A stretch of DNA of 63,995 nt, filler included, from Ionaspis alba (Eukaryota): assembly GCA_964255285.1 (NCBI GenBank). It is 5 parts of 5 records of this genome, joined end to end, with 100 filler letters (N's around TTAATTAATTAA, not from the genome) between each part and the next. Parts side by side here need not be neighbours in the genome. Positions count along the whole stretch, not along the records: positions 13,356 to 26,542 come from CAXUUL010000471.1; 4 more parts are not named here. One strand, written 5' to 3'. This document shows, piece after piece, positions 19,039 to 23,566 of the stretch (positions within the stretch are counted from its first letter, which is position 1; each line of letters opens with the position of its first letter). The translations under genes were made by a program, and so were the position numbers. Below the pieces are notes generated by a model. That model was not told the origin of the DNA. It saw nothing but the letters and a program-made list of their open reading frames with translations, and ran no database searches.

Positions 19039-20310
19039 TTAGTAATGCTCGGCGCCTGTGCCGTTGTGGCTGCTTCCGGGTGGGTAGACGTTGCCGTAGG
19101 GATTCGAGACCTGTTCCGTGGTGTCGAGTTGCGCTGCCAGTAAGCTGTTGGAGGTGTCTTCCTGGCCTTGGTATCCTGTTGATGGACCGGTAGCGTTCGA
19201 GACGCCTCCGGGGACGACGCCACCGATGCCTGTTGATGGCACGCCTCCGACTTGCGCACCGCTTGGTGGTTGACCGCCTGGCTGACCGTAGCTACTTGAT
19301 GGTCGATTTGGATTCTGGTTCTCTCCTCTCGCTGATTGCGTCTTGAGTATGGTCAGTAGCGTCTTACGGTTTGTCTCGACACTGGGGCGGAAGCTAAGGG
19401 AGAACAAAAGCAACCTGGGACGATACGGAAGAGATCGGAAAGACTTACTTCTCGATATTTTGCCAAATAGATCTTCAGTGCCTCTGCGTAATTCTCAAAA
19501 CCCAAGGAGGTCATGGCGAAGAGTATATCTTCTCCATTGACGGTCTTTCTTTTCTCTTGCTGACATTTCTCGGAGGCTAGAGAGAAAAGGGGAAAGAAAA
19601 TGAATTAGCAAATCCACGAATTCTGATTGGGGAAATTGGAAGCAATTTTTTCGGGCAGGGGAGTAAGCTTACCTTCACTGGTGATGAAGGAGATGAACTC
19701 GCTCACGCACTCCTGCATGCATTCCTTTGCCTCTTTGGCAATTTTGGCATTCTCGGGCAGAGCGGTCTTCATGATACGGGCGACTGGTGCAAAGTTACGA
19801 ATATTAGCATCGGAGTAAGCATGAGATTCGCTGTCCCTAGAGTGACGCTCAGGTGAAATGGACTGCGGGGAATTTCGGGACATAGTTGCGAGCTCCCACT
19901 GGCGGAGAAGGGAAGAACCATTGAAAGGAGAGAAAACAGACGGATGCTGGTGCAGATCTTCAAATCTCATGGCCGGAGAAAGCCAGTAGCCAAGCGCATT
20001 TGGGGGGAAAGTGTCACCTGGGATGAGATCCCAGAAGCGACACCATACAGAGCACGATCTCCTGATGCAGCAGGGACTTTGGGGGCACGCGGATTTTTGA
20101 TAGGAATGAGTGGATGCACGAGGGGGGAAGGCCAAGGAGGAGGAACCAACCATTTGCTATCGGCAACCATCTATCCTGCTCCTTAACGTCGAACTCGTAG
20201 GCAAGATCTCGCTGTGCAGCCTCTGGGTCGCCTCTATCCATATGCTCCGAGTTGTCAGGAGACGGGTCTCCTTGTTCCACTTCCGTTTCCTTTGGTGGGG
20301 AAGGCGACAT
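19039..20310 (-). CDS. HAP3: CCAAT-binding complex subunit HAP3/HapC (NF-YB histone fold)
   Basis: Exons 20310-20151, 19783-19673, 19576-19449, 19341-19039 give [90 protein letters not shown]. Confidence 0.97.
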
Positions 20311-22968
20311 GATGTATTATGGCTGCTTGCAGCAAAGACTCGGAATGGGGGAGGGGGTGGTGCCAAAATCGCCGGGGGAGGGTAAAATCCTTCCCTCTGA
20401 TAATTCTCGTTGGCTCGTCCTCGAATGCTATACGATTGGACACGTCACGAATGGCTCGGGTCTTACTTTGGACTGCAATGCTGCGTCGATTGTGCGTCAC
20501 ACCACACACCCACAGGGGGAAAGACAGCACCACACGACGAGCACAAGGAAGGACTTTGGCCCCCCTGCGAGCAGCCCAGGATGTGGGGATTTTGCTTGGG
20601 CAGAAAAAAAGCCGTTACAAGCGGGCTACTGATGCGGCCACCGAACAACTAAGCATCTGGCAGAAACGCACGACGAGTATTGAGTTGCGTATGGGTCAGG
20701 ATCAGAAACACGCGAGTCTGACACCACGACTAGCCCCCAAACCTGGTACTCCAAACTCAATTGAGCCTGCTCCGAGGTACGCGCTGACTGGGTATGAGGT
20801 AATCGAGCGGATACAAGCTGCGGCGACGCTACGCCCTCGTTTCCCCTTGGATATAGATCGAGATGAGGGGGTCAGGATGGGGTGTGGGTGGTACAGAATT
20901 GACAGCAAAGCGGCTTAGACCGAATGAGTGGCCTCAGGTGGACGTGGAATCTACTCCGTATAGGCGATTAGTAGGCAACGACCAGGTAGGCATGCGCATG
21001 TGTTCTGCAGCAAGACTGACCGTATTTTGGTAGCGCAAGAGCGAGAGGAGGTCGAGTCGCGCGAGCAAGGCAAGCAGTCTCGAACTCTGCTTTTAGGCGC
21101 AAATGTTTCGAAACACGAAATCCACCTTTAACCACTGTCGAGTCCAAGAAGGGAATGTGGTAGGTCGAGCTGGGGAGACTGGGATGTGTAGTGTTTTTTG
21201 GCTTTCTCCTCGAGGATGCGCGGGCCACGTCAATTGCGCATCTGCGCAAGGTCAATTGGGCAATGCGTCTACGTTGGATGTTGGCTTCGAAGAATGCCTA
21301 AGATAGCGTTAAGCGCGTGTGTGAGTGCCGTGGGGGGCAATTGTAGCTTTTCTGGTTGAGTATGGGCGTGGGAAGTGGAGGAAAATGGTCCAGTTGTTGT
21401 GGTTATTGTTGAAGCTCGCCGTCGGAGCGGGAAGCACACTGGTCGAGTCAGGACCGGCCCCTCGGGCAGCCAAAGAAAGTTTCGACCTAAACCTGACGCG
21501 TTCAAGGTGTGTGCATGCAGTAAGACGGCTTCTCACCGGCCATCCACCGGAAAGCAGATAGGTAATGATGCTGGCTTTGATTCAGGTATTGTTGCGGAAC
21601 GATCTTGGTTGAGCGACGATGCTTTCGCCTCGTCAGTCTTTGTCGCTGTTGCAAGAAGAGACATGTATGCGCATAGTTTGTTTCTGTGCTTCTCGTGCAT
21701 GGTTCGTCGCATCTTGTGGTTGCCATGTGCCGAGTACATCCCTCCCTCGACCACTGAAACCTCAGCCTCACGATCTTGTCATCCCCTGTCAGTTGTCAAT
21801 CAATGAGGCAAAGCATGTTGAGAACTTGCGACAGGAACGCCGATGCAGCAGCGCCAATGCCCTACGCAATATGCAACCTATCCGTCGTACTTGGTGGATG
21901 CAGCGGGAGGTGGGGGGGTCGGAGGTTTATTGCACCATTTACGGCACGTCTAAGGGAGCATGGCCGAGCACGGGGATTGGTCTACTCCAGTTGAGCCTTA
22001 GCAGGTTGGTTCACTCAATGGATATCTCGGTAATGGCGCTCTTCTCCTCGTGACAGACGCAGTGTTTCGTTGCACGGAGATCAGTGCGCGCAGAGTTATG
22101 TGCATGAAGTCGTCCGATGGCACAGCGCTGACGAAAGGACCTGCCATGAGGGTGTGGTGTAGGGGAGAGGAAACACCATTGAGTTTTGGGCACCAGCACC
22201 CAACGGACTCGTAGATAAGCAATCTCTATACCCGCGCACACATGTGGAACTAGATGCGATTACACATAAGATGTTGTGTTACTTGGATGGACCTTTATCA
22301 GTCCATGTCATTGTTTCATTTATCTCGAACCCAAACGAATATTGCTCGCCTCGAGGCCCTTCGAGACTTGACGTTGAAAGGACCACTCAGAGGCATTCCA
22401 TCTCCGGTGGTACCTTACCTGGGCCGCCTTGAGACACATCCTATGAGTGACCTCGCCGTAACCCTGGGCAAAAGACCCCCGCATGTTAGGCGTCGATCCT
22501 ATATCTGTAATGGTCTGGCGAAAGCCGTGCCAACTCATGGCAGCCACACTACCCCATTTGCAGCCTCAGCGTGCCCCGCATATTCAGAGCCTTCTCAATG
22601 GTTCCGCTCCTTTTGGTTGCCCATTTAGACTATTTAGTACCATTCCATATGCGACCACAGCGAATCATGCAGCTCAGATGTAACCAGGTATCCATATCTG
22701 GTAGGAGGGAGTTGTTTGATTCGGAATGTCCCTATCCAATTCCACTCGGGCAGACCTGCAGGTTGAACGATTTCCGAGTTTATTCTGACAGATGTCGCTC
22801 GCCTCGTGCATCGATCCGTTTCCGTAGTCCAGAAATTTTTTTGTGTCCTGTCACGATCGGTGCAGAAGTCAGAGCCCTATATCGAGTGGGTCGGGTCGCC
22901 TTGCGCTTCTGAGGCTTTGACACTAAGCACGCTGCATGCTCTTAGATTCTTGATTGGATCCTTCGAGA

Positions 22969-23566
22969 TTATTGTTGAACGACTTGGACATTGTTCTTTT
23001 TCTGTTGTGTCACGAACGAGGATGTCAGTCTGATGCAATCAAGATAGAAGAGAGACTTTAGGATTGAAGGGCGCTTCGAGGTATAGACGTACCTTCCATT
23101 TCTCCATCTCGTCTTGCTGCTTCTTGTACTGCTTCAGCAGTTCCTCCAAAACTTTCTTCAGCCCATCTGAGTTTGTCTTCAGTGCTGGTATGACGTCCTT
23201 CACCGTCCTTTCCACCAGAACACCATTGATCATCCGGAAACATTTTCGATCTGGAGGTACAGGATCTAGCGTTTCCAGGACCAATCTAAGATGCAAGAAG
23301 CGGTAAGCCAGCATTCTGGCGGTGTGCGTTTGAGCACTGCCGGCTTATATCATGGATTGAGCAAGGAATCAAGGGAGTCTGCCGCACTTGTGCTCTTCGG
23401 TCTCCTGCTCCACATCCCCGATCTTCTGGGCTAGCTGCTGTAAGCTGTTTTTGTAATTGGTGTATTGTAGCTGAAGCTCTATGCGTACGGTCAGTGAAAG
23501 CAGTTAAGCCAAGAGCAGAAGAGTCGTACCTTGCTGCTTCTTTGCTGTGATCTGCTGCTGAGCCAT
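22969..23566 (-). CDS. GIM4: Prefoldin subunit 2
   Basis: Exons 23566-23530, 23478-23388, 23285-23093, 23001-22969. Peptide KIGDVEQETEEHKLVLETL...RKCFRMINGVLVERTVKDVIPAL...WKKKNNVQVVQQ. Confidence 0.95.

Follow-up and report, generated by a model that had tools for sequence, protein, structure and literature searches.

A candidate alternative first coding exon inside intron 1 of hapC, encoding a second N-terminus for the NF-YB-type subunit of the CCAAT-binding complex

This article concerns hapC (HAP3, NF-YB), the gene for a histone-fold subunit of the CCAAT-binding complex, as it occurs in a 63,995-nucleotide (nt) stretch of DNA from Ionaspis alba (assembly GCA_964255285.1), hereafter called the window, in which the hapC region lies within the part taken from CAXUUL010000471.1 (13,356 to 26,542). 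My main conclusion is that hapC most likely makes a second HapC/NF-YB form by way of an alternative first coding exon, here called exon 1b, which sits at the 3' end of intron 1 and runs without interruption into exon 2. Comparison with related loci and predicted proteins points firmly to purifying selection on the exon 1b protein, to a conserved start codon and to the presence of this exon in four classes of fungi. Translation shows hapC in the window as a gene of four exons that starts at ATG 20310 and runs along the minus strand, and the features to which the argument refers are the following.

20151..20310, minus strand: exon 1a, the canonical first coding exon, running from ATG 20310 to a 3' end that consists of the LPIAN-type canonical segment and the first base (G) of the Val codon.
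19784..20150, minus strand: intron 1, 367 nt, GTTGGT...CCAG, removed in the canonical transcript.
20145..20150, minus strand: donor of intron 1, GTTGGT, non-consensus with a pyrimidine at +3, from the sequence and related loci.
19914..20040, minus strand: upstream intron segment with conserved nucleotide blocks (alignment of 11 loci, motif map), a candidate internal promoter or 5' untranslated region (UTR).
19785..19883, minus strand: exon 1b, the putative alternative first coding exon of 33 codons, with its ATG at 19883-19881, abutting exon 2 without a break.
19811-19785, minus strand: DANIRNFAP, the C-terminal end of the predicted exon 1b peptide, which in translation runs directly into VARIMK.
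19803..19808, minus strand: GCTAAT, branch-point-like by consensus and by its distance of ~20 nt to the acceptor, within the Ala-Asn codons of DANIRNFAP.
19784..19786, minus strand: acceptor CAG of intron 1, overlapping the Pro codon CCA and giving the G of the Val codon when unspliced.
19673..19783, minus strand: exon 2, VARIMK...FITSE plus one base, common to both forms and completing the V of VARIMK.
19577..19672, minus strand: intron 2, 96 nt, GTAAGC...TAG, from the sequence and in 79 of 80 related loci.
19449..19576, minus strand: exon 3, ending ...KYRE, from the sequence and gene models.
19342..19448, minus strand: intron 3, 107 nt, GTAAGT...AAG, its boundary set by the frame and by models P0011, P0012 and P0014.
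19039..19341, minus strand: exon 4, from TQSARGENQ... to the stop TAA at 19041-19039, within the open reading frame (ORF) 19039..19494.

The arrangement would amount to two mutually exclusive first coding exons, 1a and 1b. In the canonical form, exon 1a (20310-20151) would be spliced to exon 2 to give the known HapC/NF-YB; in the alternative form, exon 1b would consist of the final 99 nt of intron 1, contiguous with exon 2 and needing no splice, and translation from the AUG at 19883 would yield a short, Ser/Pro-rich and basic N-terminus ending in DANIRNFAP instead of the canonical tail and 10-residue segment, with the remainder of the histone fold unchanged.

A preliminary description of this DNA had already drawn attention to intron 1 as unusually long, weak in its donor and open in the frame of exon 2, and the coordinates 20150-19784 bear out both the 367 nt and the GTTGGT, while the exon 2 frame is indeed open through the whole intron (stop to stop 19605-20156, 183 amino acids). 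All three of the in-frame ATGs it named, at 20153, 19970 and 19883, were found, the last of them in the context GCAACTATG, and read-through from exon 1 changes frame and stops at 20014-20016 (ORF 20014..20316), upstream of ATG 19883, just as it had said. Its broader proposal of a hidden coding frame held only in part: the last 33 codons (19883-19785) are conserved but the remainder of the ~122 open codons is not, and among the ATGs only that at 19883 is conserved, those at 20153 and 19970 being lineage-specific. The open frame alone is weak evidence, as it is only mildly unusual, and it is the comparison with other loci that carries the case beyond chance. Intron 1 is 63% pyrimidine, and in 20,000 mononucleotide shuffles of it a stop-free result arose by chance in 2.2% in the exon 2 frame and in 6.5% in any frame; the length of open frame ahead of VARIMK varies between 36 and 196 codons in other loci.

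The related loci are the best 80 of 331 metagenome stretches encoding relatives, ranked against a query that included exon 1b. A nine-residue block with at most one substitution stands in frame before VARIMK in all 80, its variants including DSN, DTN, DAD, IGN and IQN, and the canonical exon 1a end is found 273-511 nt upstream of VARIMK in 74 of them, the other 6 contigs being truncated. Across 52 distinct 54-nt junction sequences, the first and second positions of the DANIRNFAP codons are nearly invariant and the third is variable, so that Asp is written GAT or GAC, Ile as ATT, ATA or ATC, Asn as AAT or AAC, Phe as TTT or TTC, the second Ala with all four GCN codons, and Arg as CGT, CGC, CGA, CGG, AGA or AGG. 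Only two third positions never vary, that of the first Ala codon (T) and that of the Pro codon (A), and they are located in the branch-point-like GCTAAY and in the acceptor CCAG: the first Ala codon is always NCT and is followed by AAC or AAT (GAT once), giving CTAAY in 51 of the 52, and the Pro codon is CCA in 52 of 52 while other codon families vary at their third position. Conservation reaches beyond the branch point and the acceptor, with Ile, Arg, Asn, Phe and Ala codons all changing synonymously, and the 31 codons before VARIMK, read in the exon 2 frame, are free of stops in all 51 distinct sequences. The same pattern is visible at closer range, in the contig of a relative that matches the window through exon 2, exon 1b and 76 nt upstream (to 19959) and resumes over exon 1a, the 184 intron letters between the matched parts being replaced by 144 others; over 19815-19851, 7 of the 8 substitutions listed fall at third codon positions of the exon 2 frame. 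Contigs of the run that covers this DNA best extend over 19400-20227 and 20360-20500, and the stretch they leave out, 20228-20359, where exon 1a has its start codon and 5' part, is probably an assembly or filter gap; one low-depth contig join that skips 19811-20218, with one side of 33 letters at 80% likeness, is given no weight.

Substitution rates come from Nei-Gojobori counts, for which distinct loci were matched with their nearest neighbours in disjoint pairs and the counts added up over all pairs, 26 pairs in a first run and 25 in a second, from which one pair was dropped for a contig too short upstream. In the first run, the ratio of nonsynonymous to synonymous rates (dN/dS) is 0.30 for the whole of exon 1b and 0.85 for the part of intron 1 that precedes the ATG, taken in the same frame, and the differences in exon 1b fall at codon positions 1, 2 and 3 in numbers of 135, 106 and 250. 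The second run separates the last ten codons of exon 1b, at 0.063 (binomial p 1e-20 against neutrality), from its N part, at 0.36 (p 1e-14), in agreement with the preserved frame and the dN/dS below 1 that the preliminary description had envisaged for the 3' end of the intron; it gives 0.015 for the last 14 codons of exon 1a, and exon 2 stands at 0.009 in both runs. Between the window and its closest locus, L001, the proportions of nonsynonymous (pN) and synonymous (pS) differences are 0.026 and 0.526 in exon 1b, and 0.275 and 0.255 in the upstream intron. Both alternative N-termini are thus held by selection, dN/dS being well below 1 in exon 1a and in exon 1b alike.

The start codon is part of what is kept. 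Nearly all of 59 distinct loci have an in-frame ATG 31-45 codons upstream of the Val and one has it at 63, the exceptions being L065, whose only ATG is at 11 codons, and L048, which is truncated. Among 49 distinct upstream regions, the ATG is preceded by A at -3 in 38, by a purine at -3 in 45 and by C at -1 in 36, which is a good initiation context, and the second codon is TCN (Ser) in 46; stops often occur 3-9 codons before the conserved ATG in several groups of loci. The predicted exon 1b peptides have a common pattern and not a common sequence, beginning with Met-Ser, continuing as a Ser/Pro-rich stretch with SP motifs and basic residues, and ending with the invariant block.

What sets this exon apart is that it overlaps the signals of the intron in which it lies. 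Orthologous copies of intron 1 begin with GT and end with AG in 51 of 51 distinct introns, at lengths of 273-511 nt, and GCTAAT (19803..19808) would be the branch point, judging by its consensus and its spacing of ~20 nt from the acceptor; the internal ATG precedes it by about 75 nt. Since exon 1b contains the branch point and the acceptor of intron 1, splicing of this intron would destroy exon 1b, and use of exon 1b would therefore require a transcript that is unspliced at intron 1, so that a single splicing choice would separate the two forms. The segment seems to be under two layers of constraint at once, one from the protein and one from the splice signal, and would serve as a clean example of such joint protein-coding and splice-signal constraint. 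At the other end of the intron, the donor has a pyrimidine at +3 in 52 of 60 loci (GTTGGT in 27, GTTAGT in 22, GTCAGT in 3), as against 17 of 65 for intron 2 and 2 of 60 for intron 3, and a weak donor that is conserved in this way would fit slow or regulated splicing.

The same N-terminus is already present in public predicted proteins. These searches used a contiguous stretch of the window, so the matches cover exon 1b and exon 2 only. With the translation of intron 1 alone as the query (residues 1-124 of the open frame), 14 predicted proteins were returned, nine of which have the Met equivalent to 19883 as their very first residue and, over the 70 residues from there to where exon 2 ends, show 93-97% identity with the window; models of this type include NCBI entries of Lambiella, Ptychographa and Icmadophila, and in two Xylographa species the models place the same peptide behind exon 1a. 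A profile built from 50 exon 1b-type N-termini found 543 predicted proteins at an expectation value (E) of 0.01 or less among 8000 scored candidates, and, in a library of 1.84 billion proteins, it reached E<=0.001 for 234 representatives of clusters formed at 50% identity, and 1e-10 or better for 173 of these. The exon 1b Met is the first residue of several named models, among them Cadophora's "transcription factor HapC", Lachnellula's "Nuclear transcription factor Y subunit beta" and the "transcriptional activator hap3" of a Dothideales species, with further examples in Tricladium, Pseudogymnoascus, Biscogniauxia, a Xylariomycetidae species and Diaporthe, and taxonomy look-ups place exon 1b-type models in the Leotiomycetes, Sordariomycetes, Lecanoromycetes and Dothideomycetes. 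The exon also occurs in Apodospora and Cercophora, which are related to Neurospora and Podospora. The motif DANIRNFAP, which the preliminary description had placed in other Pezizomycotina HapC models, is present in such models. The matches also contain divergent alternative-start groups with M, S or N after VARIMK, and ten such proteins carried no taxon name.

Two contigs from other organisms bring the argument closer to RNA. Intron 2 is present in the window and in 79 of the 80 related loci, and the exception, L080, is a complete metagenome contig of 1156 nt that has neither intron 2 nor intron 3, with the exon 1b ATG at 118, no exon 1a in the 117 nt upstream, a stop at 652-654 and ~500 nt 3' of that stop, without a poly(A) run. 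The locus nearest to L080 is L044, where intron 2 is present, and from position 36 to position 352 L080 runs colinear with L044 through the 3' part of intron 1 and through exon 2. The predicted protein P0077, from a Logan contig of 1575 nt, likewise has the alternative start with introns 2 and 3 absent, and ORFs of the same Logan source read through introns where these are present, for example P0071. Both L080 and the contig of P0077 look like mature messenger RNAs (mRNAs) carrying exon 1b, the absent introns being what suggests an RNA origin.

How such a transcript would arise is a separate question, and here the upstream part of intron 1 provides the clues. In the window, the blocks TCGCTTC (20040-20034), GATCTGCACCAGCAT (19958-19944) and TTTCAATGGTTC (19925-19914) precede the exon 1b ATG and are conserved in Lecanoromycete loci; intron blocks keep a conserved order across groups, with CTGATTTGYGCG shortly 3' of the donor, TCGCTTC 105-127 nt before the ATG in most groups (157 nt in the window), ACACGCGCA 88-107 nt before it, and TCGTCGAATCAGAG in another group of loci and also in the 5' part of L080. 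Such blocks would fit a promoter or a 5' UTR, and a role as splicing regulators would suit them just as well. A CCAAT or ATTGG box is found in 26 of 49 upstream regions, only modestly above rough chance in loci that are related, and is not counted as evidence. With slightly better than even confidence, I consider that the exon 1b transcript starts at a promoter inside intron 1. The same isoform could also be made with no internal promoter, by retention of intron 1 in a transcript from the normal promoter, exon 1a then acting as an upstream open reading frame (uORF) and ribosomes reaching AUG 19883 by re-initiation or scanning, and this I regard as unlikely, if the best placed of the alternatives. 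It draws support from the conserved non-consensus donor with its +3 pyrimidine, which would fit regulated, inefficient splicing, and from the early end of the exon 1a frame, whose stop comes one codon past the start of intron 1 in the 22 GTTAGT loci and at 20014 in the window, upstream of the AUG. Against it, re-initiation after a uORF of about 55-100 codons is usually inefficient; L080 has 117 nt upstream of its AUG with no exon 1a, though the end of a contig is not a mapped transcript start; and the conserved blocks suit a promoter or 5' UTR, with the same reservation about splicing regulators as above.

Another possibility grants that the internal ORF is translated but gives it a regulatory role, either in tuning hapC output on unspliced transcripts or as an unstable protein, and I judge it improbable. 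Nothing speaks for it directly, and the variable, probably disordered N part, with its dN/dS of 0.36 and its low predicted local distance difference test (pLDDT) scores, is compatible with it; the strongest constraint, however, at a dN/dS of 0.063 and invariant in four classes, falls on nine residues that abut the histone fold, as expected of a function in the folded protein.

Less probable still is an internal coding insert, in which an acceptor upstream of the ATG would join exon 1a in frame and give a longer HapC with both the canonical segment and DANIRNFAP. Models are drawn in exactly this way, as exon 1a plus linker plus exon 1b, in 29 of 262 motif-bearing proteins (for example in Hyaloscypha, Daldinia, Xylaria, Botrytis and Apodospora), but the linker from LPIAN to Met is different each time, in its length as in its sequence; the join is impossible in 21 of 52 distinct loci, which lack an AG in phase anywhere from the last in-frame stop to the ATG; in 0 of 51 introns does direct read-through from exon 1a stay both in frame and free of stops, and the lengths of these introns leave a remainder of 0, 1 or 2 on division by three in 20, 15 and 16 cases; and an insert would split the start of helix alpha1, if the NF-YB fold is any guide. 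Judging from these loci, the conserved product must start at the internal ATG and not contain both N-termini, because the fused linkers vary, the in-phase AG is missing in many loci, intron length is spread over all three remainders and no read-through is open. The fused hapC/HAP3 models are probably annotation artefacts that arise from two coding-like first exons. Deposited models of the fused kind include P0072, P0084, P0095, P0110, P0145, P0154 and P0158.

Finally, it is hardly credible that nothing is coded here and that a chance frame in a pyrimidine-rich intron coincides with a conserved branch point, polypyrimidine tract and acceptor: the shuffles do leave such a frame open in 2.2% (this frame) or 6.5% (any frame) of cases, and GCTAAY and CCAG do lie inside the conserved block, where synonymous divergence is lower, but third positions vary under fixed amino acids, including CGN/AGR switches of the Arg codon, dN/dS is 0.06-0.36 against 0.85 in the neighbouring intron, the ATG is conserved in a good context, and the frame is kept, with stops in 0 of 51, across length differences of 31-63 codons.

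Several points nevertheless weigh against an exon 1b form of HapC. Loci similar to the query, in exon 1b as elsewhere, rank higher, and the set of 80 is thereby biased and gives no share of Pezizomycotina that carry the exon. Splice signals account for part of the nucleotide conservation in the last ten codons, where pS is 0.286 as against about 0.5 in exons 1a and 2, and the N part of exon 1b evolves fast (dN/dS 0.36), as expected of a disordered tail. The models with an exon 1b N-terminus may be ab initio calls and so no proof of expression, and among the matches with this N-terminus there is no named Eurotiomycete (Aspergillus) model. The status of L080 and P0077 as complementary DNA follows only from their absent introns, for which intron loss in those lineages may be an alternative, and in Ionaspis alba itself exon 1b is known from the DNA sequence alone; a look-up of runs containing this DNA returned two sets of Logan contigs of unspecified kind and no RNA run, which speaks neither for nor against expression. 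AlphaFold2, run on the closest full-length alternative-start model with 19 aligned sequences, returned a mean pLDDT of 50.8, with values below 50 for residues 5-31, and such a prediction gives the new N-terminus no structural support for a defined role.

If hapC does make the exon 1b form, most of the protein would be familiar. In a PDB search, the window from FAP-VARIMK to FITSE matches HapC of Aspergillus nidulans (4g91_B, E 1.5e-17) and, over the same residues, human NF-YB (E 1.9e-14), and PF00808 (CBFD_NFYB_HMF) is found at E 8e-26 on P0011, which is 96% identical to the window over exon 1b and exon 2, and is annotated on all matches of the protein searches. The canonical edge of the fold, LPIAN before VARIMK, is present in the exon 1a form and absent from the exon 1b form, where the Pfam match, in the closest full-length model, does not begin until profile position 6 of 65, and HMMER lined up the FAP of exon 1b with the IAN before VARIMK. 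According to structural reports, the crystallised HapC core begins at residue 42, a few residues before LPIAN (10.1101/2021.07.15.452465, PMC7266990). Such work describes HapC and HapE as gripping the DNA backbone in the manner of histones, and places the docking site of HapX on alphaC of HapC and alphaN of HapE and not on the HapC N-terminus; a review reports for yeast Hap3 a 7-residue stretch that is needed for DNA binding and for association with Hap2 and Hap4, its residues not being specified there (PMC6652802). With helices alpha1 to alphaC intact, the exon 1b form should remain able to pair with HapE, and should differ in whatever the canonical segment does at the start of alpha1, for example in DNA or HapB contacts. 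Its first helical turn and the residues before it presumably make a specific contact of their own, because they differ from the canonical residues and yet are strictly conserved.

More tentatively, and as speculation that I would myself rate as doubtful, one could imagine a binary switch on the CCAAT-binding complex, in which each pre-mRNA or promoter choice yields one form, and in which the exon 1b form would still pair with HapE but would have a remodelled start of alpha1 and a phosphorylatable Ser/Pro-rich tail, altering DNA, HapB or partner binding, either as a competitor or with a different set of targets; leotiomyceta would have preserved such a switch over hundreds of millions of years, and it might possibly be fed back through the CCAAT-like boxes of the intron. 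The complex is described as a master regulator in filamentous fungi, acting in iron homeostasis with HapX, in sterol synthesis, azole tolerance, redox and secondary metabolism (PMC7266990, PMC4954732, PMC2831313).

No description of a second HapC/HAP3 form, of an internal start in hapC intron 1 or of the DANIRNFAP motif was found in the full-text literature, the subscription-only original cloning papers of hapC and Trichoderma hap3 being outside that scope. The exon 1b peptide is already to be found in public gene models, and it is its reading as a second HapC form that appears to be new. To my knowledge, all structural and genetic work treats HapC as one protein. If the two-form reading is true, hapC deletions take out two proteins together, constructs that begin at EQDRW cover just one of the two forms, and many database hapC models are wrong, being either fused or given a single start only.

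As to the surroundings of the gene, an open frame at 23039-23344, ~2.7 kb upstream of hapC and likewise on the minus strand, resembles a gene for prefoldin subunit 2. In Parmeliaceae, proteins of this subunit share a 90% cluster with a hapC model, which suggests that both genes adjoin there too. The cluster of P0045, being mixed in this way, was given no weight as hapC evidence.

It remains to set hapC beside systems that are better known. The nearest is HapC of A. nidulans (4g91/4g92), to which the window gene is near-identical from VARIMK on, and exon 1a gives the same canonical junction; the exon 1b form, unlike it, would be without the canonical 10-residue segment before VARIMK. The only PDB chains that match from inside exon 1b (from query residue 24, query 19674-19883) are Drosophila CHRAC-14 (2byk_B, of the CHRAC-14/Dpb4 type) and Plasmodium ORP1 (9rif_A), both H2B-like histone-fold proteins; the matches are weak (E 1.7e-4 and 2.6e-8) and driven by the fold, and I treat them only as a lead on where the new N-terminal edge may resemble other folds of this kind and claim no membership. 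Isoforms of the same trimeric factor exist in mammals, in the short and long forms of NF-YA and the variants of NF-YC, where splicing alters activation domains outside the conserved core; hapC would share this diversity of isoforms, whereas its swap would lie at the histone-fold edge of the B subunit. In a wider sense, alternative first exons and start sites that change N-termini are widespread in animals and have been reported in fungi, and hapC would resemble them in having two 5' coding exons, a shared body and a second start within the first intron. It differs from them in that the arrangement is kept across four classes, and, which is the unusual point, in that the coding sequence of exon 1b is at the same time the branch point and the acceptor of the very intron whose removal deletes it.

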